From Candidatus Poribacteria bacterium (GTDB lineage Bacteria; Poribacteria; WGA-4E; WGA-3G), in NCBI GenBank assembly GCA_965197475.1, contig CBDANF010000003.1:3424001-3488000 (forward strand): 64,000 bases of DNA. The letters are read 5' to 3'. Both the position numbers and the translations under genes were made by a program. Under the pieces are notes generated by a model. That model was not told where the DNA came from. It searched no databases and saw only the letters and a list, made by a program, of their open reading frames with translations. Shown here piece by piece: positions 5,511-56,274 of this stretch; the first letter of the stretch is position 1, and the number at the start of each line of letters is the position of its first letter.

Positions 5511-5584
5511 TGGGCTTACCTGGAATCGAACCAGGGACCTCGCGCTTATCAGGCGCGCGCTCTAACCTTCTGAGCTATAAGCCC
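5511..5584 (-). tRNA. tRNA-Ile(GAT), CCA not encoded
   Basis: Minus strand reads GGGCTTATAGCTCAG..CTGATAA..GGTTCGATTCC..AAGCCCA and folds as a cloverleaf. Confidence 0.95.
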
Positions 5585-5604
5585 ATAGGAGAAGGCAGAA
5601 AGCG

Positions 5605-7346
<1,742 letters not shown>

Positions 7347-43379: not shown

Positions 43380-46300
43380 ATGAATTCAGAAAGAACAATC
43401 AAACAGAACATTGAAAACGCCCTAAAGGAATTTGATAGCCAACCGATAAGAGACGCTGCAACACAACTCTTAGATATCCTCGGTTATCGTAGTAAGCGGA
43501 TCAGTAATGATGCGTTAGATAATGAGAAGTATAACAATCTCCTTGAATCTGCTCTTGAAACTTCTAATCCATCCAAGAAACTCCGCCTTGAAAAATGGCA
43601 AAGCTATAGTCGCATCATGCAAATAACAGATGAAGAGATTAACCAGCAACGAACACCTGAACGCCAATTCTTATTTGAGAGCACTAACATAAACGAAAAT
43701 CTCAGAACATCTTATATGTTCGTGGCTGTCGAACTTGATGGTCCTGCCTTTACACGCACCCAACTTGCAGACATTACCCGTTTTATTTGTAAGGAAGTAC
43801 CATATTCAATAATGGTAATGTTCCGATATAGTGATTATCTTTCCCTTGCAATCATCAATCGCAGACATCACAAACGAGATAAGTCCAGACAGGTTTTGGA
43901 GAAAGTTACACTCATCAAGGATATAAACCTAAATAAACCTAATCGCGCCCATATTGAAATAATCTATGACCTTTACCTCCGCAATCTCATCCAGACTCAA
44001 GAGGTTAACAACTTTGATACGCTCCACGATGAATGGGAAAAGATTCTCAATACAGAAGAGCTTAATAAACAGTTCTACCGGAAACTGTTCGCTTGGTATG
44101 AATGGGCAGTAGAAACAGCAACGTTCCCGACAGATGAGAATCGTGTGATAAAACCGGAAGAGCATGTCATTCGCCTCATCACACGCCTACTCTTTATCTG
44201 GTTTATCAAGGAAAAAGGATTGGTGGCAGATGCGTTGTTTAACAAAGCACAAATCCAAGACCTATTGAATGAAGATGACTTTGATAACGGCGATTCCTAC
44301 TATCGCGCCGTGCTACAAAACCTCTTTTTCGCCACGTTAAACACGGAGATTGACAAACGGACGTTTAGTAAGGGAGGCAATGCTAATCATCGCAATTTCT
44401 CACGGTATCGTTACAAAAAGCAGATGCAAGACCCTGATAAACTGCTATCTGTCTTTGCACAAACGCCGTTCATCAACGGCGGCTTGTTCGATTGTCTGGA
44501 TAGTTTTAAGGCAACAGGTGAAGGTGGTTACAGAATAGACTGCTTCTCTGATAATCAGTACCATAAGTTATCCATCCCGAACCACCTCTTTTTTGATGTC
44601 CAGCAAGGATTGATTCCCCTCCTCGAACATTACAAATTCACTGTTGAGGAAAACACACCGATAGATCAGGAGGTTGCATTGGACCCCGAACTGCTCGGCA
44701 GAGTGTTCGAAAACTTACTCGCCGCTATCAACCCAGAAACAGGAGAAACGGCGCGCAAGATGACAGGTTCCTACTATACCCCGCGCGCCATCGTAGACTA
44801 TATGGTGGAGGAGGCTCTCATCGCTACGTTATCCCAAAAGTGTCAACCGACTGTTGACAATGAAGTCCCTTGGGATGAACGATTGCGGTATCTGTTTGAC
44901 TATGCACAGATATTTGACGATGCAAGCGAATGGTTTGATGACCGCGAAACAGATGACATTGTGAAAACAATCTCTGAATTCAAGATATTGGATCCAGCGG
45001 TCGGTTCTGGGGCGTTTCCGATGGGCGTGTTGCACAAGTTGACTCTTGCACTGCGGCGACTTGACCCCGATAACAACCGATGGGAAGCATTACAGAAGGA
45101 ACTTGCCGGAAAACGCGCTGCTGCGGCATTCAACACCCAAAATCAACAGGAACGCGATGATGAACTGACCGAAATCAGTGAGACTTTTGAACGTTACCGA
45201 GATTCTGACTTCGGACGGAAGTTGTATCTGATACAAAATAGCATCTTCGGTGTAGATATTCAACCGATTGCGTGTCAAATTGCCAAACTTCGCTTTTTTA
45301 TCTCTCTTACGATTGAGCAGAAACCTGACAGCGGCGCGGAGAACTTTGGTATCAAGCCTCTGCCGAATTTGGAGACGCGGTTTGTTGCTGCAGATACATT
45401 GATAGGGCTTAAATTGCAGATGTCGTTGAAAAGCCAAAAAGCAGTGAATTTGGAACAAGAACTATGCAACAATCGTGAACGACATTTCCACGCGACCACA
45501 CGAAAACAGAAGCGAGACTGCAAAACTAAAGACGAAAAATTGCGCGCTGAATTGGCAGCAGAACTAAAGAGTCTCGGTGCGTTTGCTGATGACGCAGATA
45601 ATATCGCGCAGTGGGATATCTATGACCAGAATGAAATAGCAGAATGGTTTGATCCTGAATTGATGTTTGGGGTTACGGATGGGTTTGATGTGGTGATTGG
45701 CAATCCGCCTTATGTCCAATTGCAAAAGGATGGTGGGAGACTTGGAAATCTCTATCAAAATGTGGGTTTTGATACCTTTGCCCGCACAGGTGACATTTAC
45801 TGCCTGTTCTATGAAAAAGGGCATAAACTCTTGAAAAGCACAGGACATCTCTGTTTCATAACTTCCAACAAATGGATGCGCGCTGGCTATGGTAAAAAGT
45901 TGAGAAATTATTTCATCTTACACATACAACCCGTTCAATTACTGGATATGGGACCTGACGTGTTTGATGCTACTGTGGACACGAACATTCTTCTTGTACG
46001 AAACAACTCAATATTTGATGATGTTAATTCCTTTAGAGCTGCAACCATTGGTGCAGACTTTGACAGACAGACCGATAATATTGCCCAACACCTAAAAGAT
46101 AATGGCGTGGATATGGAGATGCCCACAGAAGATGAACCGTGGGCGATTCTTTCATCTGCTGAACTCAACATAAAACGCAAAATTGAGGATGTCGGAACAC
46201 CGCTTAAAGAGTGGGATATAAACATCTATCGTGGAATTGTGACAGGTTGTAATGAGGCGTTTATTATAGACGAGGCAAAACGTGAGGAACTTATTGAGCA

Positions 46301-46994
46301 AGATCCGAGGTCGGCCGAAATCATCAAACCCGTTTTGCGTGGACGTGATATTAAACGCTACTACGCCAGACCATCGGGATTTTATATTCTTGCAACTGGT
46401 TACGATCTGGATATTCCGAATAGGTATCCTGCTATCTTCGGTCACCTTGAAGATATTGGAGAACAGATCGACTCTGGAAGAATAAGAGTGAAAGGAAAAG
46501 GACTATTTGAAAGAGATGACCAAGGTGAAAATTGGTGGAATCTTAGGGCTTGTGCTTATTATTCCGAATTTGATAAGGAAAAGATAGTTTGGGGAAACAT
46601 CGCTTATAGTAGCACTTTTTGTTATGCGGCTCCGAGTGTATTTATCAATGCACCAGCAAATCTTTTAACCTCAGATTCTAACGATATCAAGTATCTATTA
46701 GCATGCATGAACTCAAATATATTTAATTGGGAGTTTGTAAAGTTAGGGATTCCTTTAGGTTATGCTTTTGAGTGGAAAAAGCAATACGTTGAGTTGATAC
46801 ATGTTCCACCTATCACAGATGCAAATCAACCTATTATCGAACAGATTGAAATACGAGTTGACAAAATCCTTGACGCAAAACGCACTGCCCCGGACGCTGA
46901 CACTTCCTCCCTTGAAGATGAGATTGATAAACTGGTATACGGCTTATACGACTTAACTGACGGTGAGATTGCTATTGTGGAGGGGAGTGTATGA
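43380..46994 (+). CDS. Large Eco57I/TaqI-like N6-adenine methyltransferase with target-recognition domain
   Basis: GSYYTP, DPAVGSGAF and GNPPYV motifs. TaqI_C-like C-terminus (LR.CAYY.EF.KEKIVW). Confidence 0.9.
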   Translation: MNSERTIKQNIENALKEFDSQPIRDAATQLLDILGYRSKRISNDALDNEKYNNLLESALETSNPSKKLRLEKWQSYSRIMQITDEEINQQRTPERQFLFESTNINENLRTSYMFVAVELDGPAFTRTQLADITRFICKEVPYSIMVMFRYSDYLSLAIINRRHHKRDKSRQVLEKVTLIKDINLNKPNRAHIEIIYDLYLRNLIQTQEVNNFDTLHDEWEKILNTEELNKQFYRKLFAWYEWAVETATFPTDENRVIKPEEHVIRLITRLLFIWFIKEKGLVADALFNKAQIQDLLNEDDFDNGDSYYRAVLQNLFFATLNTEIDKRTFSKGGNANHRNFSRYRYKKQMQDPDKLLSVFAQTPFINGGLFDCLDSFKATGEGGYRIDCFSDNQYHKLSIPNHLFFDVQQGLIPLLEHYKFTVEENTPIDQEVALDPELLGRVFENLLAAINPETGETARKMTGSYYTPRAIVDYMVEEALIATLSQKCQPTVDNEVPWDERLRYLFDYAQIFDDASEWFDDRETDDIVKTISEFKILDPAVGSGAFPMGVLHKLTLALRRLDPDNNRWEALQKELAGKRAAAAFNTQNQQERDDELTEISETFERYRDSDFGRKLYLIQNSIFGVDIQPIACQIAKLRFFISLTIEQKPDSGAENFGIKPLPNLETRFVAADTLIGLKLQMSLKSQKAVNLEQELCNNRERHFHATTRKQKRDCKTKDEKLRAELAAELKSLGAFADDADNIAQWDIYDQNEIAEWFDPELMFGVTDGFDVVIGNPPYVQLQKDGGRLGNLYQNVGFDTFARTGDIYCLFYEKGHKLLKSTGHLCFITSNKWMRAGYGKKLRNYFILHIQPVQLLDMGPDVFDATVDTNILLVRNNSIFDDVNSFRAATIGADFDRQTDNIAQHLKDNGVDMEMPTEDEPWAILSSAELNIKRKIEDVGTPLKEWDINIYRGIVTGCNEAFIIDEAKREELIEQDPRSAEIIKPVLRGRDIKRYYARPSGFYILATGYDLDIPNRYPAIFGHLEDIGEQIDSGRIRVKGKGLFERDDQGENWWNLRACAYYSEFDKEKIVWGNIAYSSTFCYAAPSVFINAPANLLTSDSNDIKYLLACMNSNIFNWEFVKLGIPLGYAFEWKKQYVELIHVPPITDANQPIIEQIEIRVDKILDAKRTAPDADTSSLEDEIDKLVYGLYDLTDGEIAIVEGSV

Positions 46995-47099
46995 ATCGCG
47001 GATTTGCGCGGATTACACGGATTACGCGGATTTTTGAGTTTGTAGCGTCTCTGTAGCTGCTGTGAAAAAATTAACTATTTAGATTTTGGAGGATAAATT

Positions 47100-48341
47100 A
47101 TGAGTACTGAAAATGACTTGAGCAAGGTTAAGGAAAAAATCAACGAAATTGAGGAAAAATCTGGTGATGGGGGTTACATTTTCCGCGGTGAACGTCAATG
47201 CAATAAAAAAGTGTCCTCAAACCTTTACCGAGATTTTGATGTGGGAGATATGCAAGGATTTGATATAGAGGTTGTCCAAAAAGAGATGCTTAACGGTGCT
47301 AAAAAACATACAGGACATCTTCCGCTGACAGGTGATTTGCCCAAGGATTTTCGCCCGATTTTCGCAAGAATGTTTAGCGTGAGAGAAGAAGATACTGCTG
47401 AAACTGTAGATTTTGAGATTCTTACTGAAATCCAGCATTATGGAGGAAAGACTAATCTAATTGACTTCACAACTGACTACTTGGTTGCGCTATTCTTTGC
47501 TTGCGATGGTCACCATGATAAAGAGGGTCGAGTGATACTTCAAAAAGCGGATGAAATACAGGACATGATAAGGTATCCTCGGAATCCACGACATCGCGTC
47601 GCTGGGCAAAAAAGTGTGTTTGTTCGTCATCCTAAAGGCTTTATTGAACCGCATAAGGACAACATAGTTATTATTCCGGCAAATCTAAAAAAAACTATGC
47701 TACAACATCTACGAAAGTACCATGGCATTTATACGGAGACAATCTATAATGATCTTTATGGATTTATTAGAAATCAAGACATTCATGGAGATGCTTACAC
47801 GCAGTTTTATAGAGGTGTAACTTGTCAAAATAGAGCAGATGAAGCGACAACCACTGAAGTGAAACAGCAAGAATATGAAAATGCCATTCAGTATTATACC
47901 GAGTCGATAAAATATAAACCAGATTACACACCTGCCTATAATAATCGTGGGAATGCTTACTGCAGAATAGGTAAGTTTCAAAAGGCAATTGAAGACTTCA
48001 ATAAAGCGATAGAAATACAACCTGATAATGACAAAGTCTATTACAATCGGGGTGTCGTTTATAATAAAAAAGGACTGTATGGCAAGGCGATTGAGGACTA
48101 TAACAAAGCAATAGAAATACAACCTGATAATGACAAAGCCTATCATAATCGCGGAGAAGTGTGGTTGCATCTCAAAGATTGGGAAAAAGCCAAAGCCGAT
48201 CTGATAACTGCGAAGGAGATGGGAGTTGATATCGTTGCTGCATTTCGTAACGACTATGAAAGTGTTGCGGATTTTGAGCAGAAAACGGGTATTCAGTTAC
48301 CAGAAGACATCGCCGCACTGCTAACACCCCCGCAGGCATAG
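47100..48341 (+). CDS. FRG-domain plus TPR protein
   Basis: YIFRGE, QHYGG.T.LIDFT....ALFFAC and R...Q.SVF motifs, then TPRs. Confidence 0.85.
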   Translation: MSTENDLSKVKEKINEIEEKSGDGGYIFRGERQCNKKVSSNLYRDFDVGDMQGFDIEVVQKEMLNGAKKHTGHLPLTGDLPKDFRPIFARMFSVREEDTAETVDFEILTEIQHYGGKTNLIDFTTDYLVALFFACDGHHDKEGRVILQKADEIQDMIRYPRNPRHRVAGQKSVFVRHPKGFIEPHKDNIVIIPANLKKTMLQHLRKYHGIYTETIYNDLYGFIRNQDIHGDAYTQFYRGVTCQNRADEATTTEVKQQEYENAIQYYTESIKYKPDYTPAYNNRGNAYCRIGKFQKAIEDFNKAIEIQPDNDKVYYNRGVVYNKKGLYGKAIEDYNKAIEIQPDNDKAYHNRGEVWLHLKDWEKAKADLITAKEMGVDIVAAFRNDYESVADFEQKTGIQLPEDIAALLTPPQA

Positions 48342-48357: not shown

Positions 48358-48540
48358 TGTCAGAATCGCAGATTTGCACAGATTACGCGGATGACGCTGA
48401 TTAGTCTTCTGCTGTACGTATACGCCAATCCTGTAAAAAGCACCTTGAAATACCAACAAAAAATCCGCGTAAATCTGCGTCATCCGCGTAAACCGCGATT
48501 CAGACAAGAGAGACAATCTGCGCCATCCGAGATTCAGACG
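48358..48540. repeat. Inverted CGCGGATT/AATCCGCG-type repeat cluster (relatives at ~46995-47035 and ~59835-59890)
   Basis: TGTCAGAATCGCAGATTTGCAC.. pairs with ..CCGCGATTCAGACA. Confidence 0.65.
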
Positions 48541-48607
48541 GCTCCACAAACCGCGCAACTATCACTTGACAGTGTTAAAATTAATACGGTAAAATGGATA
48601 ATAGGGA

Positions 48608-48949
48608 ATGGAAATCAGCGGCTTAAGAATTCCGGACGATGCTCTCGTTGTTCGTGGCGGCAGAAACCAAGCGAGCGACATTCAACGAGGGACTAGCACG
48701 CATCCGGCTGGAATCACTGGTGTGTCGGTAGAAAGTGCCGAAGGTGTTTCCGTTGCGGAATTAGCACAAACCATTCCGCACAGACAAATTGGCATAACAG
48801 CCGTTGCGGAGGTCCGGAAAGCAGGTGGTGATGTGGTACGAACTGCTGGTCGGAGTCCTCATCATGCAACGTTGACAGGACTGACACCCAAACAAGTTAG
48901 TAAACTACTGACACCGACAGTTCCAAATCCTGGGAGGGAAAGAAGATGA
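48608..48949 (+). CDS. Small putative toxin-like protein
   Basis: VVRGG..GVSV..PH..IG...GGDV.....HATL. Own promoter TTGACA-18-TAAAAT at 48566-48595. Confidence 0.55.
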   Translation: MEISGLRIPDDALVVRGGRNQASDIQRGTSTHPAGITGVSVESAEGVSVAELAQTIPHRQIGITAVAEVRKAGGDVVRTAGRSPHHATLTGLTPKQVSKLLTPTVPNPGRERR

Positions 48950-49236
48950 ACGAACTCAAAGTTTTCGCAGACTTCCACAACACAGACGTAAAAGGCAGGG
49001 TGCGGTTGAACTGCGCTGGTACGATAGCAGATCTCGAACGTCAAGGAATTGAACTGCAAGATGGACAATCCCTTATCATCTATAGCGAAGAGTTAGAGGT
49101 TGAGGGCATCGTTCACTATTCAGAAGAAGAAAAATTGTGGACAGCCGTGATTGATTGGAATGCCATTCGAGAAGTCCAACCTATAATCCCTCAGTCCGCA
49201 ATTCAAGCCATCAGCCACATGAGGGAGAAAAAATAG
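48946..49236 (+). CDS. Small acidic putative immunity/antitoxin protein
   Basis: ATGA-coupled to the previous gene. ADFHN.D..GRVRL..GT..DL..W.AVIDW. Confidence 0.55.
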   Translation: MNELKVFADFHNTDVKGRVRLNCAGTIADLERQGIELQDGQSLIIYSEELEVEGIVHYSEEEKLWTAVIDWNAIREVQPIIPQSAIQAISHMREKK

Positions 49237-49744
49237 GCAAACGGTGGCTACATTACCGCGGGAAAATGAATACTATGTGGGGCGATTCAGACAACATCTT
49301 GTAGTGAATAAACATCATACACGCTTGCATATTCTCAACTTGCCCCTACCAACTTGCCTTCAAATCACCCCAAGTTGTTCTTCACAACTGTTCATATTTT
49401 GTCCGAGGGATCTCCGAATCGTGACACGGTGTCGGGATTCGGAGATCCCTCCTACCTTTGGATGTCGTCAGTAATCGGAAAAGTTGCGGAATTCAAAACC
49501 AAACGAGACAAACATCTGAAATATAAACATACCAAATGTTAACTATCACAACGCGTTATGTAGAATAAAAAATACACTACATAATGTAAACATTATCCAA
49601 ATATATTACGTTATTGATATCAAATTCAGAAGTTGTTGCGTTCTGGTTCATATAAACAGAATGTAGTAATTGAATTTGTTCCAGTCAACATATCAAATGC
49701 ATATCTATATCGTCAGCCAATTTTATCTCTAAAAGGAGTTACCA

Positions 49745-50131
49745 ATGAAAAGATCAATCGCTATTTCCGCAATTGTGTTGATGTTGTTCAGCATCTTTCT
49801 GTATCCCATCGCACCACAAGCGCAAGAATCTGAAATCCAACGTGCAGAAGCAGATGCGAAACGTGATGCGAGCCAGGATATTTCAACAATCTCTTGGGGA
49901 ATTGGAGGCTTTTTTTGTAGTGTGTGTGCCGTGGCTTATGTCTATGTCAATAAACCTACAATACCTGCCTCTCGATTTGTTGGAAAGTCTGCGGAATATA
50001 CTAACTTCTATACAGAAATTTACCAGCGAGAAGCACGAAAGCAACGCAGTCAGGCCGCCATGATTGGCTGCCTCGCCGGTTCTGTTTTCAACACTATAAC
50101 ATACTATCTTTACGATCAATCACAACAATAA
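49745..50131 (+). CDS. Hypothetical membrane protein
   Basis: AAGGAG RBS, signal peptide and two hydrophobic segments. Confidence 0.7.
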   Translation: MKRSIAISAIVLMLFSIFLYPIAPQAQESEIQRAEADAKRDASQDISTISWGIGGFFCSVCAVAYVYVNKPTIPASRFVGKSAEYTNFYTEIYQREARKQRSQAAMIGCLAGSVFNTITYYLYDQSQQ

Positions 50132-50141
50132 CTTTTTGTGA

Positions 50142-50172
50142 AAAAGGGCATGACTATACAAGTCATGCCCTT
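50142..50172. terminator. Strong hairpin (terminator-like)
   Basis: AAGGGCATGACT-ATACA-AGTCATGCCCTT. Confidence 0.7.
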
Positions 50173-50442
50173 CCTTATCCCGATTCCTGCATTCAAAACC
50201 GAAAACTGAATGCCTCTGACACTTCTTATATCAAATTAACCCGATTTGTCCTATTTTCCCGACGGTAGGTGCGGTTTCCTAACCGCACCGAGTGGGATCC
50301 TGTTAATTTGGTATTACACCCAAGCAAGGTGCGTAAAGTTTTTGACATTAACCTGCCTCTCTTTTGTAGGAGGGGTTTTCAACCCGATATATTGCCGTTG
50401 ATTTGGCGAAAATCCGAGATTCACACAGAAAAAACGCATGAA

Positions 50443-50528
50443 CAATATATATCCAATATAATCCCAATATATATCCAATAAATCACCACACTTTTTATTT
50501 GATTTAACACAAAAAAGCATCGTATAAT
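50443..50528 (+). promoter_or_regulatory. Four 11-bp direct repeats followed by a sigma70 promoter
   Basis: CAATATATATC-like x4 at 50443-50486. TTGATT-18 bp-TATAAT at 50499-50528. Confidence 0.65.
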
Positions 50529-50532
50529 TAAC

Positions 50533-51166
50533 ACGTGTTTAGAATGCAACGCCCAATACGGCAACACGAGCTTTTGATACTCTAAGAGGGGGTGAGGTTC
50601 CCTGACGAAGCGACCACACGGGAACACAACTTTACAGCCACAACAGTCGCTCGAAATCTCGATTAGGAGCCGTGGGCAGTCTCTTTGGATCCGCGACACC
50701 AAACGGAGACGAAACAACACCAACACGGAAAAGGATCGCGTAAATTCTCACGAAGTCGTGGGGGATTTCCGTTGCCCAACGGCATCAATGGAAACTCAGA
50801 TATGTATGAAACATCTATTTCATAAATCTTGGAGGGTTTGTAACCCCGACAATATCCTACATTTCTTGTAGGAGGGGTTTGTAACCCCGATTACAATCGG
50901 ATTTATGAGATATGTTCTACATACCCACAGGAATATGTCGTTTAAAATCTCACAGAGTTGCGGAGGTTCAACTGACACTAACGGCCCCAGAAACCGAACC
51001 AAACATAATTCCGTAGAAAAGGACCGTTTAAAATCTCATAGAGTCGTGGCATTTTCAGAGACACCGCAGCTTCTCAGAAACGACCATACCTCACGTCAAT
51101 AGCTGCAAACTCCCAGTCCGTAAAGCTGGAACTCGTAAAGTTGTATTTGGGCTTTGCATTCCACGT
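50533..51166 (+). ncRNA. Candidate large structured ncRNA with five tandem pseudoknot modules
   Basis: The 5' and 3' ends are complementary over ~35 nt. Five ~80-90-nt modules show co-varying loop-tail pairing. No credible ORF. Confidence 0.7.
50801..50923. mobile_element. Small MITE/REP insertion inside the candidate ncRNA
   Basis: Imperfect IRs TATGTA..CATAAATC / GATTTATG..TACATA, with TA at both ends. Internal GTAGGAGGGGTTTGTAACCCCGA REP. A related end is at ~5131. Confidence 0.65.
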
Positions 51167-51304
51167 TTTCTGCGCGTCTTGCTACCATGCCCGTTACATT
51201 GTAGAGCGGGGTCCCTGTGTTTCCCGCCATCTGTCTTAACTAAGATTATCAGTATTGTATTGGATTGAACTTACGAAACCGAACAAGAGCAAAAAACATG
51301 AAAA

Positions 51305-51365
51305 CACGTCCTAATTCTTGTACCGCTTGACATTAGCACGTCCGTGGGACGTGCAAAACGTCCCA
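51305..51365 (+). promoter_or_regulatory. Operator-like palindrome overlapping the promoter of the HTH gene
   Basis: TTGACA at 51327, GCACGTCC-GTG-GGACGTGC at 51336-51354, and extra ACGTCC half-sites on both sides. Confidence 0.6.
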
Positions 51366-51378
51366 ATTTACACACAAT

Positions 51379-51978
51379 ATGAGGAACATTATGAACATTG
51401 ATGTAGAAACCTTGGATGAGGAAACCCTGAATATAGAAACCTCGGATAAGGAAACGCCGGATATTGAAACCCTTGAAGAATCACTAATTGAAATTGCAAA
51501 GACACTTGGATGCGAAGAAACCGTTGAGACATATCACAACATGATGAATAACACAACCGAGGAAGGCAACGAAACTAACGCAGAAGAGGAGCTCTTTGAT
51601 GCCGAATCTTACTCACTTGATGCTACCCTCGTCCGTGTCCGAATGAAAGAACGCAATCTTGCACTCACAGACTTACAAGAAAAAATCGGTGTCGCCTATC
51701 GAACCCTTACCCGATGGCTCAGCAAGGACGACTTCCCAAAACATCGGAACATCCTCAAACTCGCGGAAGTACTAAACCTTGAACCTTATCAGTTGGTATA
51801 TAGGTGGAGGAGGTACGGGAATAACCGACCCAATAATAATAATGATGCACTCCGCTATGTCCAAAGACGAATCGAAACCATCGTCACCGAAATCCTTGAC
51901 GACAAGGAAACTTCTAAGGAGAAAAAACTTGACGCACTCGTCAAATACCACAACATCCTCCTCAAGGCAACAAGGTAA
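51379..51978 (+). CDS. XRE-family HTH protein with an acidic repeat N-terminus
   Basis: L...M.E..L...DL...IGV..RTL.RW....FP...NI.KLAEVL. Confidence 0.8.
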   Translation: MRNIMNIDVETLDEETLNIETSDKETPDIETLEESLIEIAKTLGCEETVETYHNMMNNTTEEGNETNAEEELFDAESYSLDATLVRVRMKERNLALTDLQEKIGVAYRTLTRWLSKDDFPKHRNILKLAEVLNLEPYQLVYRWRRYGNNRPNNNNDALRYVQRRIETIVTEILDDKETSKEKKLDALVKYHNILLKATR

Positions 51979-52251: not shown

Positions 52252-53277
52252 CTAAAACACCTTTCCAATTCCTACCCTATTTATTATTTTCTCTGCCAAA
52301 ATCTTGAAGTCAAGGGATGCAGAATAGGCAGCAGTGGAATGGGCACCAATAGCTCCGTCAGCTGGTTTGAGATGAAAAATAGGTTTGCGCGCCTCTTGTG
52401 CCATCGGGACAAGACTACGATAGTGTTTGACGGTAGCAAGGGCATTTTTTTCATCTTCTGTCGGGGTTTCGGCATACGGACCCTTGTGATCGCCTAATAG
52501 ATTCCGAGCGTATTCAGCGGGCATCCGATTAACCCATTTGTCGTAAGCCTTGACCGGACACCCTAAACGAACACCGTGTTGTTGGACCACATAGCCAATC
52601 GGTTGAATCAATCCTTTAGGTATAAATAAATCAGAAATAGGGTTTCGACTATACCTGTCTTTCCAACCGTTTCGCCAATCTTGTAGCGTCGGACCGAGGT
52701 TCCGCAGCCCTTGAAGAGAGAAAAGATCAGCCCCGAGTGGAACAATAACGTAATCAGTAGCAACTAACACTGCCCTGTTCAAGGCACCTAAGTTGGGACC
52801 TACATCCACCAAGATAATATCGGTTTGCCGATCATTTGCCGCTTTTTGCAAAATTCGCCATAGTGCCGAAATCACTCGGAAGGCACGCGGACGACGGTCC
52901 AAACATTCCGGCCATTGACTTGAAAGTTCGTCTTCGGTCGAAGATAGCAGGAGATCTCCGACAATGAGGTTCAGTCCAGGAGTAAACATGTCCTGTGTTA
53001 TATTTTCTAAGTGAGGCGATTCAATGTCTCCTGTTCCATCCAAAAGTGGTTGGAGTGCATTATAGATAGTTTTTCTTTCCCCACTGTCAGGCCATAGTAC
53101 TTCCAGGCGTTCCTCATTGATAAACATACTAGTAAGGTTTGCCTGCGGATCAAGGTCGCACGCGAGTACACGATAACCCATGTCGGATAGCATCCACGCA
53201 AGATGATAAACAAGGGATGTTTTACCAACACCGCCTTTGTTATTAAAAAAAGTTAAAACTGGCACAGACATCGTCAT
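52252..53277 (-). CDS. ParA/AAA_31-family ATPase (non-partition type)
   Basis: FNNKGGVGKTS, DLDPQANLT and DVGPNLG motifs. No parB nearby. Confidence 0.85.
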   Translation of the reverse strand: MTMSVPVLTFFNNKGGVGKTSLVYHLAWMLSDMGYRVLACDLDPQANLTSMFINEERLEVLWPDSGERKTIYNALQPLLDGTGDIESPHLENITQDMFTPGLNLIVGDLLLSSTEDELSSQWPECLDRRPRAFRVISALWRILQKAANDRQTDIILVDVGPNLGALNRAVLVATDYVIVPLGADLFSLQGLRNLGPTLQDWRNGWKDRYSRNPISDLFIPKGLIQPIGYVVQQHGVRLGCPVKAYDKWVNRMPAEYARNLLGDHKGPYAETPTEDEKNALATVKHYRSLVPMAQEARKPIFHLKPADGAIGAHSTAAYSASLDFKILAEKIINRVGIGKVF

Positions 53278-54497
53278 GCCCTCTTGGTATTTGACACCGC
53301 TTTTATTGTAGCGATTGCATTAGCATTATCAATCTCAAATTGCGGTTCTGGCTGACCGGCTTCTTCCAATAATCTTCTTGCTATTAATATACCCATACCG
53401 AAATGCTGCACAAAGCCGAGAGTTCGCATCGCTTCCGCCAAATTGGGGTTCCGATAGTCAGTAAGACCTGGTTTACCAAAATTCTCAGGGGTTACAGCAC
53501 CGAATATACCTCCGGGGCTAAAAACCTCAATCCGGTTGTTGAACCAGTACACACGTACTGGTGCATTTGTCCCTTCATAAGTCCTGTGCATGATCGCATT
53601 TCGGGTAATCTGTTGCAGTGCCTCAATCGGATAAAGTGCAGTTCGCTTCTCAACAGGACCCGACATAATATCAACGGCAACTCGGTTATGCGCAATCAGT
53701 TTATCGTCTAAACGGCGAATTTGGTCAGAAATAGCCCCACGAATCTCTTCGCTGTCAAGAATCGGATCTACGAGTTCATTCCCATCAATTCTGAGGAACT
53801 GCACATAAGCCCCATATAGAAAATCTTGAGGATTCTTTCCGATAGTGAGAATTCCAAGTACAGTAGGCGTTGGTTGGTCGGCAGCAGTGATCATCTTTGT
53901 AGCTGCCAATTGTTCATTCAAAGTTCGTTCGTTAAGTGCTAATATCTCTTCAGAAACAGCTTGCGGTAGATACTCGTAATTGAACAAGGCAAGATTGAGG
54001 TCAGAAATGCTGGCGGTGGGGATAGGATACAAGTCAAATGGACGGTCCCCATATCGGCGTTTTTCGTTGAGAACCCTTTCATCTTGTATTGTTGCGGTGC
54101 CTCGCCGTGGTCCAATACGTATATGGATGGCACTTTTATATCGCACTGGCGGTGAATCGGAAGGTTCCACTTTAACTACGGCAACTTCCTTTCCTCGCAA
54201 CACACGTTTTTCAACGGCCAGCGACGGTGGCGGCACGGTATTTCCATCTGTTTTCATATCTGCCAATTGTCGGAGTAATTCGTCCGTAACCGATAGACCT
54301 GCAATAGTTTTATCTTTCCTTATCCCGATAAAAACGAATCCTGGTTTTTCGTGGCGAGGCAGATCGTTGGCAAAAGCGCAAATAGCCTCCCTAATTTCTT
54401 TTGGAGCACTGCCGGACAGAGACTCCTTGAACTCAATTCGATCAGATTCATCGTCCTCAATAATTTGTAGCAACTCCGCATCTGTAAACTGCCGCAT
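53274..54497 (-). CDS. AlbA_2 (Schlafen-like) plus HATPase_c_4 protein
   Basis: ESDRIEFKES, ICAFAN, NAIMHR.Y and RNPNLAE motifs. Likely start MRQFT at 54497. Confidence 0.85.
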   Translation of the reverse strand: MRQFTDAELLQIIEDDESDRIEFKESLSGSAPKEIREAICAFANDLPRHEKPGFVFIGIRKDKTIAGLSVTDELLRQLADMKTDGNTVPPPSLAVEKRVLRGKEVAVVKVEPSDSPPVRYKSAIHIRIGPRRGTATIQDERVLNEKRRYGDRPFDLYPIPTASISDLNLALFNYEYLPQAVSEEILALNERTLNEQLAATKMITAADQPTPTVLGILTIGKNPQDFLYGAYVQFLRIDGNELVDPILDSEEIRGAISDQIRRLDDKLIAHNRVAVDIMSGPVEKRTALYPIEALQQITRNAIMHRTYEGTNAPVRVYWFNNRIEVFSPGGIFGAVTPENFGKPGLTDYRNPNLAEAMRTLGFVQHFGMGILIARRLLEEAGQPEPQFEIDNANAIATIKAVSNTKRA

Positions 54498-54621
54498 TTC
54501 GATTCCTATTAATTTGATGCCTGTTAGCCGTCTGTATTTTTTACAACAATCAACTATCGTCCGTATACTAAGTATATAGTGGGAAGTAACCGTTGTCAAC
54601 GCTAATTTCCATGTTAAAAAA

Positions 54622-56274
54622 TCAATACAACACATGCACCCGATTTTTACCACGTAGCGTCTCATCAGGCATCACAATCGGCATCTCAACGATAGCGATA
54701 AACGATCCATCCTGACTAATAGCAAGCGCATCGTAAGGGAGCTGCCCCTCCGTGCGATAGGTGTAAAGATATTTTGCCAACCCATCACCCTTTACAGTCA
54801 GATCGAACATAGAAACGCCATGGAGACTTTCGTTCGGATTTTGACTCCGCTTAGAAACAGCCAATGCAGCATACCGTCCCTTCGTATCAATACGTAAACC
54901 TTGCGGCATATTCTCAAGCTTCCACTGCCAAACCTTTTCTCCACCCCACGAATACGCAAAAACCGTCATTCCGTTAGGATGCAGTGTAGACGGACGTTGT
55001 GCCCCCTTTTGAAGATGGTATGGGATATACGTATCGCCTGTAACAAATAGAGCGGCAGCGTCTGTTGCACCAATCGTGCCGGTTGTCGCAATAATCGGCA
55101 CACCGCTCACTTCCATCGGTGTTGCTAAATTCTGTTTCCATATCGGTTCCGAAAGGTTTACATCAAAAATGAAAGCGCGTCCATCATCCGTTGTAATGTT
55201 GATAAACTTACCATCCGATGACATGCTGACTCCGCGCCAAAAAGTAACCCCTTCAAAATACGGAGTAAGCGGTTCAATATCCGCGTGCCAATTTTCTGTT
55301 CCAGCCGCCACATCAATCACAGATAGTGTCCCATTCCCCTTACCACTTTCATCTGAAACAAGTGCAAGCACTTTTCCATCAGCACTGATGTCAAACCATC
55401 GAAATATCTTATGCATAGCCTCCTCACGAGGCCATTTCCATTTGACATTCCCCGTTTTAGCGTCAAACCGATAGAGCATAGACCACTTTTGAGGCATTTC
55501 ATTATGTGTCCACGAATGCACGCCTGCAACTAATAGATCTCCGTTAGGCAGTGTCCGCATACACGACTGACCGGGATAACTAACCCACGCATATACACTC
55601 CCTGGATTACTCGGCATAGAGGTCTCAATATCGTCTGCTGTCCGGTATTTCCAACGAAACTCTGGAGTCGCACCTGTCAGGTCATAACAATAGATAAATC
55701 CGTCCGCCGCTTGTTCGCCAATGTAAAGTACGGAATTATCAACACTAAATGCGATGTGCCTAACATAACCTTCTGAAATACGGGTTTTCCAAACCGTCTC
55801 ACCTGTCATCGGTTGGATAATCGCAAGGTGTCCCCTATCTGTAGCAACTGCAAGTTTATGTGTCCCAGTTCCGTCCCCAAAAGCAACTGCAGTCGGTTTT
55901 GCAGGTTGACGTAGATTTTCCATCAGCGACAAGAGACCATCTAACTCAATCGTCCGGATGAGGTAAGGAACAGGTTTCAGCGGAGAAATCGCTTTAATTG
56001 TGTTTTGACTTAAACGGAATTTATAACTTTTATTCGGATGCCAAGCAAATTGCAGTAAAACCCGTTTCTCATCAATTTTTTGTGATGACACCGTTTTAAA
56101 TCTTGTGGTATCCTGTCCGATAGCAACTTCAATTTTCTCGCTAAGTTCGCCTTTCGTTTCAGATTCAAGCACTACACCTGTCCGAACCCAGACGACGTTT
56201 AAATCAGCCATCACCACACTGATCGGCAGAATAAAAAACAAAAATAGTAAACAAAAAATTCGGATCTGTTTCAT
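54622..56274 (-). CDS. Secreted PQQ/WD40-like beta-propeller protein
   Basis: Signal peptide and repeated D..TG...W motifs. Confidence 0.7.
   Translation of the reverse strand: MKQIRIFCLLFLFFILPISVVMADLNVVWVRTGVVLESETKGELSEKIEVAIGQDTTRFKTVSSQKIDEKRVLLQFAWHPNKSYKFRLSQNTIKAISPLKPVPYLIRTIELDGLLSLMENLRQPAKPTAVAFGDGTGTHKLAVATDRGHLAIIQPMTGETVWKTRISEGYVRHIAFSVDNSVLYIGEQAADGFIYCYDLTGATPEFRWKYRTADDIETSMPSNPGSVYAWVSYPGQSCMRTLPNGDLLVAGVHSWTHNEMPQKWSMLYRFDAKTGNVKWKWPREEAMHKIFRWFDISADGKVLALVSDESGKGNGTLSVIDVAAGTENWHADIEPLTPYFEGVTFWRGVSMSSDGKFINITTDDGRAFIFDVNLSEPIWKQNLATPMEVSGVPIIATTGTIGATDAAALFVTGDTYIPYHLQKGAQRPSTLHPNGMTVFAYSWGGEKVWQWKLENMPQGLRIDTKGRYAALAVSKRSQNPNESLHGVSMFDLTVKGDGLAKYLYTYRTEGQLPYDALAISQDGSFIAIVEMPIVMPDETLRGKNRVHVLY

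Follow-up and report, generated by a model that had tools for sequence, protein, structure and literature searches.

Transfer-messenger RNA (tmRNA) is characterised by paired 5' and 3' ends that enclose a ring of several pseudoknots, HEARO/omega RNA, GOLLD and ROOL are large structured RNAs that travel with mobile DNA and whose functions, where assigned, are recent findings, and the sponge small RNAs (CsrB/RsmZ for CsrA; CrcZ for Hfq/Crc) are formed by repeated units, variable in number and sometimes present in several gene copies, with A/C-rich single strands. The pneumococcal BOX elements (boxA-boxB(n)-boxC) are dispersed, probably mobile, and contain variable internal modules of about 45 nt, without a promoter of their own, between mutually pairing terminal parts; we know of no pseudoknot or covariation evidence for them. 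Here, we analyse a 64,000-nt stretch of the genome of a Candidatus Poribacteria bacterium (contig CBDANF010000003.1, positions 3,424,001 to 3,488,000; hereafter the window), in which positions 50533-51169 of the + strand correspond to a candidate non-coding RNA (ncRNA) of ~640 nt, consisting of a closing stem (P0), five modules and a terminal hairpin. The explanation that we consider best as a whole, with a probability of roughly 0.55, is that this RNA belongs to an uncatalogued, promoter-driven family of structured RNAs, carried as transposon cargo, which would act in trans as a scaffold or decoy.

The locus shares with the BOX elements, as far as their general layout goes, the existence of variable tandem modules between paired ends, and with CsrB, RsmZ and CrcZ the repeated units on one transcript, their variable number and the A/C-rich strands. 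However, the GGA-loop hairpin design of these sponge RNAs is not found here, and the units are complex pseudoknots. Unlike tmRNA, the locus has no tRNA-like domain and no tag frame, and ARAGORN returned neither tRNA nor tmRNA in 50000-51600. Unlike HEARO, GOLLD and ROOL, its modules repeat one design, and there is no adjoining IscB/TnpB-type nuclease gene. None of these families was matched in Rfam 15, which gave 0 matches in 50200-51500 at E<=10; the scan of the whole window at gathering scores recovered only 16S rRNA and tRNA, and five homologous loci gave just three chance-level matches, far below gathering. These scans agree with a preliminary description of the locus, made from the sequence, according to which the RNA matched no known family. 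Tandem Repeats Finder detected no array in 50533-51166, since the modules are too diverged, and in the literature surveyed at title and abstract level, with most subscription journals outside its scope, the RNA is nowhere described. The class is new to Rfam 15 and to that literature, and its vehicle, a MITE (short for miniature inverted-repeat transposable element) or an insertion cassette, belongs to a known type.

In type III toxin-antitoxin (TA) operons, a rho-independent terminator is followed by a gene for an endoribonuclease of the ToxN/CptN/TenpN type, as stated in PMC5086642. Like ToxI, CptI, TenpI and antiQ, the RNA studied here contains promoter-driven tandem H-type pseudoknot units with A-rich linkers, and lies near defence-type genes. 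However, its units are not short near-identical repeats, as they span 76-88 nt and are ~38% identical; each of them has two extra helices, and a closing stem of ~35 bp surrounds the whole array. Moreover, no terminator-plus-toxin gene is found, and the RNA is transposon-borne, with up to 17 copies. Unit size, divergence, the closing stem and the XRE gene that comes next all support the earlier view that this is not a ToxI array.

The passengers of known mobile insertion cassettes are, to our knowledge, protein genes. The element described here resembles MITEs and mobile insertion cassettes of the ISKra4 group in having ends identical to those of an autonomous insertion sequence of the same genome, 8-9-bp duplications and no transposase inside, as well as in its insertion just 5' of sigma-70 promoters, a preference given for this group in PMC3942029. 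It differs from them in its passenger, a gene for a large structured RNA that has a promoter of its own and is kept by compensatory changes, and its size (1.35-1.7 kb) is too large for a typical MITE.

Structure and covariation of the RNA

The modules follow a shared plan, formed by an AAAAU linker, a 3-bp hairpin CUC-NNN-GAG, an outer stem (P1), an inner hairpin (P2) and a pseudoknot between the P2 loop and the 3' tail of the same module. Between P1 and P2 there is, on one side, an A/C-rich strand in which large insertions are tolerated. The size of 76-88 nt holds for all the window modules except module 3, which reaches 202 nt due to an insert, and the mean column identity among the five (alignment A1) is 38%. 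The head AAAAUCUCANAGAGUCGUGG is the best-conserved part across module types, being near-invariant, and module 4 is confined to some lineages. The five modules and their loop/tail complementarities had been recognised in the preliminary description, and all five pairs are found at the positions proposed there (Table 1); the inner stem of module 3, given as TTTCC/GGAAA, has to be corrected, the actual pairing being CCGUUG/CAAUGG (50769-50774/50786-50791).

The + strand folds with a minimum free energy (MFE) of -193.3 kcal/mol (z -3.7), a value that is equalled in 0 of 20 shuffles. The proposed pairing of the two ends appears in this fold as an interrupted closing stem of ~35 bp. The run of T residues described after the stem is indeed present, although it is just four T long. 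The region had also been considered free of open reading frames (ORFs), which is true only in part: ORFs of up to 101 amino acids (aa) are listed in it, while 1-nt indels in alignment A5 speak against coding.

Covariation was analysed in 19 full copies from 9 genomes, which were excised and parsed into modules and constitute the basis of the alignments. Pair counts were made on alignments A2, A5 and A6, using slid pairings and 500 column shuffles as controls. Alignment A1 was left out for its excessive divergence, as were A3 and A4, in which MAFFT had put the 3' strands of insert- or indel-bearing rows in other columns, and module 4 (8 instances) was assessed by reading and RNAduplex, outside the formal counts. 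In A2, which covers four helices of module 1, 93.8% of the cells are paired, compared with 35-43% after sliding, and 5 of the 21 pairs show double changes. Alignment A5 includes 100 pairs in 17 helices (P0, the terminal hairpin, modules 1, 2 and 5, and three pseudoknots), and 93.6% of its cells are paired vs. 33-39% in the slid controls, with double changes in 23 pairs (78 cells) vs. 6-10 pairs (7-17 cells). None of the 500 shuffles of this alignment was as high in paired share, double-change cells, covariation score or double-change pairs. Within it, helices 1-4, which form P0, have 82-100% of their cells paired and 8 pairs with double changes. For module 3 (A6, with two sequences of a second genus), the paired share is 95.5% against 25-60%, and 6 of 18 pairs have double changes (29 cells); shuffles reached these values in 0 of 500 cases for paired share, double-change cells and covariation score, and in 49 of 500 for double-change pairs.

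The pseudoknot helices are 94-99% paired and show double changes as well. That of module 3 is 99% paired despite bridging inserts that make the module vary between 88 and 375 nt. Examples of double changes are CGUG/CACG to CAUG/CAUG in module 5, CUC/GAG to CUU/AAG in the hairpin of module 2, GUCUC/GAGAC to AGCCU/AGGCU in genome G024, and AACGACA/UGUCGUU to GAUGACA/UGUCAUC in the loop and tail of module 3. RNAduplex identified the own tail as the best partner of the own hairpin region in 5 of 5 window modules, and in 13 homologues the cognate combinations had a mean of -9.40 kcal/mol (n=59), compared with -6.39 (n=220) for non-cognate ones. The co-variation of stems and of loop/tail pairs, a claim of the preliminary description, is therefore upheld by double changes and 93.6-95.5% pairing in A5 and A6 and, for module 4, by reading and RNAduplex. 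Paired columns contain 101 G:U and 51 A:C combinations, an excess that favours an RNA read from the + strand. Compensatory changes span at least five lineages plus a second genus, and it is very probable, judging from these alignments, that 50533-51169 is a member of a real family of structured RNAs.

The sigma-70-type promoter reported upstream exists in the form described and, although its score alone is at chance level (1 found vs. 2.7 expected in shuffles), the homologues keep the consensus form: the family consensus, TTGACA-17-TATAAT, is conserved in most of the 17 aligned homologues. At the position of the tandem repeat that precedes the -35 box, the homologues carry related ATCCAATA motifs, and the CAATATATATC repeat could provide sites for a regulator or UP-like sites.

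A further contact may exist inside the RNA. The loop of the terminal hairpin, (C/U)GUAAA, is complementary to the bulge of module 1, and the motifs CUUUACA and (C/U)GUAAAG match in 83% of the cells vs. 20-53% when slid. In G024, bulge and terminal loop are both one base shorter and, by reading, a G-to-A change in the loop of genus g9 (the sister genus) is accompanied by a matching additional U in the bulge. As the two motifs hardly vary, this possible contact is taken as a lead.

Table 1. Features of the RNA locus and its surroundings (positions in the window).
Feature	Positions	Strand	Basis or remark
Promoter, sigma-70-type, TTGATT-18-TATAAT	50499-50528	+	10/12 consensus positions
11-nt tandem repeat CAATATATATC, 3.5 copies	50443-50484	+	Just 5' of -35
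Closing stem P0, 5' strand	50533-50572	+	MFE fold and pair counts (helices 1-4)
Module 1: hairpin CUC-UAA-GAG, P1, P2 GUUCCC/GGGAAC, pseudoknot AGCGAC (50609)/GUCGCU (50646), bulge with CUUUACA	50574-50653	+	Pair counts, RNAduplex
Module 2: hairpin, P1 CCGUG/CACGG, P2 GUCUC..UUUGG/CCAAA..GAGAC, pseudoknot CGCGA (50692)/UCGCG (50736)	50654-50741	+	Pair counts, RNAduplex
Module 3: P1 50758-50762/50924-50928, P2 50769-50774/50786-50791, pseudoknot 50778-50784/50936-50942	50742-50943	+	Pair counts
Module 4: P1 UGCGGA/UCCGUA, P2 GGUUC/GAACC, pseudoknot AACGG (50980)/CCGUU (51024)	50944-51029	+	Reading and RNAduplex, 8 instances
Module 5: hairpin CUC-AUA-GAG, P1 CGUGG/CUCACG, P2, pseudoknot GCAGCU (51066)/AGCUGC (51101)	51030-51107	+	Helices 13-16, RNAduplex
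Terminal hairpin CCAGU-CCGUAAA-GCUGG	51113-51129	+	Helix 17, 98.9% of cells paired
Closing stem P0, 3' strand, then UUUU	51130-51169 (pairing part 51130-51166)	+	MFE fold and pair counts
Left terminal inverted repeat GGTGCGTAAAGTTTTTGACA of ISKra4-type element	50328-50347	+	Exact end-pattern match
REP-like repeat copy TTGTAGGAGGGGTTTTCAACCC, just inside left end	50355-50390		Repeat family D2, genome-wide matches
Trailer: A-rich stretch, TTGACA, direct and inverted ACGTCC/GGGACGT repeats	51289-51380	+	8 further copies in genome
XRE-family helix-turn-helix (HTH) gene, 199 aa	51379-51978	+	Syntenic in two sister genomes without RNA upstream

The stretch 50792-50923 of module 3 is a variable insert with two copies of a dispersed ~25-nt repeat similar to repetitive extragenic palindromes (REP-like). 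In the family, foreign repeats of 70-260 nt are accommodated where P2 is joined to the 3' strand of P1 by the one-sided A/C-rich stretch, and they leave the helices undisturbed. The REP-like unit, TTGTAGGAGGGGTTTGTAACCCC, is found at 50364-50385, 50826-50847 and 50866-50887, and in at least 40 places of the genome. A tandem run of several REP-like copies occupies the same site of module 3 in G022 (locus L010, about 1119-1312), and a different hairpin repeat (TTTGTAGCACAAAC...GTTTGTG) is found at equivalent sites in G005 and G021.

Distribution of the family and its probable transposon vehicle

The RNAs of this family measure about 340-960 nt and contain one to six modules between kept ends. 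A single module is present in one copy of G021, and three in G024b. Four-module RNAs are formed by modules 1, 2, 3 and 5 in most copies of G005, G010, G021, G025 and G030, and by modules 1, 2, 4 and 5 in G012. Five modules are found in the window and in G022, and six in G024a as well as in G127 and G096, which belong to a second genus. This variation in module number with conservation of the ends is what would be expected for additive repeated units.

When 60 other genomes were searched by BLAST with the 3' half, relatives were retrieved (E<=1e-13) from 9, all of the same genus. A covariance model of module 1 (R1), used for the distribution counts, was positive in 12 of the 40 genomes of the genus, with 1-17 hits in each and up to 17 copies in G005. 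In a phylum sample of 151 genomes, it matched 11 of 38 genomes of the same genus, 14 of 56 of the sister genus and 0 of 56 genomes of 20 other genera. Among five loci read in the sister genus, the whole layout, with six modules and the closing stem, is present in three, and the 3' part of the remaining two is absent or interrupted. The RNA is single-copy in the window's genome, where the 42 non-self matches all fall on the REP-like insert. Distant blastn searches of phage and plasmid collections with 50531-50800 gave no match. The matches of a 16-mer scan (11 viral stretches, and at least 120 in metagenomes in a non-exhaustive search) were discarded as chance, with 0 of the 91 loci listed (11 viral and 80 from metagenomes) matching R1.

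A sister element family exists in G005 (L047-L050), which has the promoter, the initial ~70 nt (comprising the 5' end and the head of module 1) and the trailer in common with the RNA element, and differs in the interior ~350 nt. In the same genome, about 25 further places match this 5' part only.

In G005, the repeated unit exceeds the length of the RNA, and the flanking genes differ from copy to copy. An end repeat, GGGTGTGTAAAGTTTTTG, is located 200-320 nt 5' of the RNA in the copies of G005, G021 and G012, and its inverse 400-860 nt 3' of it; the RNA-bearing elements measure 1.35-1.7 kb and have no conserved ORF inside. Both ends are present in the homologues L018, L023, L027, L030, L033, L019 and L024. 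Target duplications of 8-9 bp flank L030 (CAAGTCCAG), L033 (AAGGTTAC) and L019 (CTAAAAGA), one of about 7 bp is found at L018, and none is seen at L023, L027 and L024. The two ends that identify non-autonomous ISKra4 elements are thus found in homologues, and the window copy has the left end only.

In the window's genome there are 121 occurrences of the end motif (<=2 mismatches). Some form pairs ~1.4 kb apart that flank a 460-aa transposase of the ISKra4 family (NF033572, E 1.8e-63, 215 bits vs. a cut-off of 205), and others form pairs separated by 150-300 nt, which correspond to small MITEs without the RNA. Homologues of this transposase exist in 30 of the genus's 40 genomes, and of the 12 that bear the RNA, 9 have one; the other three (G010, G025 and G036) have no match at E<=1e-20, and two of them are fragmented assemblies. 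Past the right end, a -35-like hexamer starting with TTG begins after 16-21 nt in 9 of the 9 RNA-bearing copies that have this end, and in four of them it is TTGACA. According to PMC3942029, members of the ISKra4 group enter the DNA upstream of sigma-A promoters and always in one orientation, and the hexamer spacing fits such promoter-targeted insertion. Taken together, the ends, duplications and hexamers make it highly likely that the RNA is cargo of a non-autonomous element of the ISKra4 family (Mutator-superfamily DDE transposons), a context that the preliminary description had missed.

Since small derivatives move without the RNA, its modules are not needed for mobility. It has to be noted that the preliminary description named dispersal across the genome as an ordinary MITE among the observations that would count against its proposal. 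Such dispersal is seen, in part, in relatives, with the up to 17 copies of G005, and not in the window's genome. It is not taken as a refutation here, because RNA-less derivatives move and yet the helices of the RNA are kept by compensatory changes.

An open frame that follows the RNA in G005 (68-149 aa) was rejected as a gene: its variable columns are distributed as 47/44/50 of 110 over codon positions 1/2/3, and the strand contains 45% A. In G020, G022, G031 and G034, most full-length matches to the ISKra4-type transposase carry exactly one in-frame TGA or TAA, which may be a natural stop with alignment overrun through the end repeat, or a recoding site.

Possible functions of the RNA

The selection on the helices, together with a mobile element that does not need the RNA, speaks for a function of the RNA itself, either for the element or for the host. 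The three roles offered in the preliminary description (protein sponge, processed multi-unit RNA and multi-aptamer RNA) are conjectural. As to the nature of this function, we tentatively propose that of a multivalent scaffold or decoy, which would bind proteins in trans. In this reading, the module head would be a repeated protein-binding unit, the pseudoknot bodies would keep this head in shape, and the whole would constitute a nuclease-resistant, multivalent molecule. The features that favour this reading are the repeated design, the near-invariant heads, the variable number of units, the paired ends and the strands that tolerate insertions.

Large, elaborately folded RNAs without an assigned function are rare in bacteria, and the solved cases (ribozymes, IscB/TnpB guide RNAs, bridge RNAs and RNA cages) opened new biology. 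In the present case the comparative support is unusually clear, the repetition of one design in varying numbers is suited to dissection, and the vehicle, a reduced ISKra4/Mutator-type transposon that inserts beside promoters, is unexpected. If the RNA acted on the transposition machinery, on RNA-binding proteins of the host or on neighbouring promoters, it would represent a new way for a DNA transposon to carry a regulatory RNA, and if it were cargo beneficial to the host, ncRNA genes could spread as passenger genes do.

Regarding transcription, nine sequencing runs contain part of the stretch, two of them RNA libraries (sponge metatranscriptomes), in which fractions of 0.11 and 0.06 of the sampled words occur. 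Most of what the contigs from these libraries cover is the REP-like repeat and the trailer together with the XRE start (one 175-nt contig, identical). The match at 51111-51164 is joined to sequence that resembles module 5 of genus g9. The contigs, which give neither strand nor ends, hint that a relative may be transcribed.

Several observations weigh against the scaffold or decoy reading or against the evidence behind it. Within the RNA, the contigs of the RNA libraries reach only 50692-50729 and 51111-51164, with 3-8 mismatches, and correspond to a relative. The window promoter is weaker than the family consensus and the right end has been lost, so this copy may be decaying. The family is accessory, being absent from about 70% of the genomes that were searched in the two genera, and derivatives with deletions are frequent, which argues for the absence of an essential role. 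Concerning candidate partners, CsrA (PF02599) had no match in this genome, which is 92.7% complete, with the control positive in three genomes, and Hfq (PF17209) reached 24.7 bits in it, below its cut-off of 27. Folding of the - strand is no less favourable than that of the + strand (-213.6 kcal/mol, z -4.65), so folding energy alone cannot name the strand, and the G:U excess that favours the + strand is no more than 2:1. Finally, the 19 rows from 9 genomes are related copies, whose cells are not independent events, and the structure, having been derived from the window sequence, has an advantage over the slid controls.

A different role, which we regard as unlikely, would be that of a portable cis-acting cassette, in which a promoter, a long structured leader with a stem and a U-run at its end, and an operator-rich trailer are brought to a site just 5' of host promoters, with the RNA as an insulator/terminator or a riboswitch-like, multi-aptamer leader with conditional read-through. 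The orientation of the elements would suit this role, as the RNA promoter faces the right end and the adjoining host -35-like box in every two-ended copy. In addition, the window RNA sits in the leader position of the XRE gene, where G012 and G022 have a short leader formed by promoter, palindrome and trailer, and by reading the trailer contains the mutually exclusive hairpins ACGUCC/GGGACGU/ACGUCCC. However, the genes downstream differ at every copy, so that no common regulated function or ligand is suggested, 330-860 nt lie between the RNA and the right end, and a ~35-bp stem between the two ends of the molecule is a typical trait of RNAs that are stable and stand alone. Furthermore, we know of no precedent for five diverged aptamers in series.

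It is improbable that the RNA regulates the transposition machinery of its own element, with the CUUUACA-UGUAAAG duplex titrating the ISKra4-type transposase or pairing with the ends. The complementarity of the two motifs (83% of cells vs. 20-53% slid) and their matched changes, the 1-nt shortening in G024 and the G-to-A change with extra U in genus g9, would be in line with such a role, as would the 7-mer TGTAAAG, identical to positions 7-13 of the inverted repeat. Nevertheless, near-invariance leaves these motifs with hardly any true covariation, and by chance a 7-mer would be matched within about 600 nt a few times in a hundred. DDE transposases bind DNA ends that are double-stranded, and the three RNA-bearing genomes mentioned above (two of them fragmented assemblies) have no transposase match at E<=1e-20. 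An extension of this idea, which we would also give little chance, is that this is the first family of DDE transposons to carry its own large regulatory RNA, whose end-mimicking duplex UGUAAAG/CUUUACA would act in trans on the transposase or on the targeting of sigma-70 promoters, setting copy number or target choice; self-assembly into an RNA particle would be another form of it.

Still more doubtful is an ordinary repeat without function at the RNA level, in which the helices would be DNA palindromes of a MITE-like element, similar to the modular BOX-type repeats, and the apparent covariation would come from shared ancestry. The element is mobile and multicopy, it gains and loses internal modules, it accumulates REP-like insertions, its - strand also folds well, and most genomes lack it. 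However, small derivatives that share the ends but lack the RNA still transpose, and pairing is kept at 94-96% through double changes (23/100 and 6/18 pairs), including pseudoknots that no DNA cruciform explains. The structure also holds across two genera, G:U exceeds A:C by 2:1, and a near-consensus promoter is kept exactly in front.

The least probable proposal is an antitoxin of the type III kind, a precursor whose AAAU linkers would be cleaved by an endoribonuclease with its gene at another locus, each unit neutralising one enzyme molecule, since, despite the conserved A-rich linkers (AAAU/AAAAU) between tandem pseudoknot units, their resemblance to the AA/AU cleavage site of ToxN given in PMC5086642 and the location among defence-type genes, the array is followed by an XRE HTH gene and no toxin gene (the G005 open frame lacks a coding signature), the 76-88-nt units are 38% identical and enclosed by the closing stem, up to 17 dispersed copies would be odd for an antitoxin, and ToxN (PF13958) was found in 0 of 5 RNA-bearing genomes, a weak point as the control genomes were also silent.

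The window copy and its genomic neighbourhood

There is no matching right end near the RNA in the window, and this copy is, according to its ends, an immobilised derivative that has kept the left one. Its trailer, which is common to the small MITEs and to the native XRE leader of the sister species, runs directly into the XRE gene. The domain scan confirmed the XRE HTH assignment of this gene, which had been proposed previously. Its orthologues in G012 and G022 are 77-78% identical and have the same neighbourhood, and their leader contains a short promoter, a palindrome and a trailer of the same kind, without the RNA. The small MITEs carry the same promoter-plus-trailer content as this leader. 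Thus, recombination between an RNA-bearing element and the XRE leader, at the trailer that both have, may have removed the right end. The XRE protein has no paralogue in the window's genome and no homologue in G005, G021 and G127; therefore, it is not a constant partner of the RNA, and the gene is a neighbour, not a proven partner.

MITEs of ~300 nt are found at G000:C3:1043519-1043818 (L054) and in seven other places, with ISKra4-type ends, a sigma-70 promoter with a palindrome over the -10 box, and a trailer with ACGTCC repeats. As a speculation, such MITEs landing by host promoters could spread operator sites for the XRE regulator. The trailer hexamer (51305-51365 in the window) switches in all copies at once, being ACGTCC/GGGACGT here and CGTACC/GGTACG in G005; this lineage-wise switch points to a sequence-specific binder that co-evolves with the hexamer, or to pairing of the copies at the RNA level. 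In the 5' part of the XRE gene (51404-51472), tandem repeats of 15/30 nt encode an acidic ETLD/ETSD-like repeat that precedes the HTH (residues 88-136).

The defence-type neighbours of the RNA locus are located at 43380-48341 and 52252-54665, and include a 1204-aa fused restriction-methylase of the Eco57I type, an FRG+TPR protein, a ParA-like AAA_31 ATPase and a Schlafen AlbA_2/HATPase_c_4 protein. The AAA_31 ATPase and Schlafen genes (about 2.6 kb) are absent from the syntenic locus of G012. Four small ORFs (96-128 aa) upstream of the element (49745-50131 and 48391-49236, + strand) had no Pfam match, and three of them had no NCBIfam match either; from this region, only 49284-49370 is common to the syntenic loci of G012 and G022. 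Further away, the window contains a complete 16S rRNA gene (5511-7258, - strand) with an adjoining tRNA.

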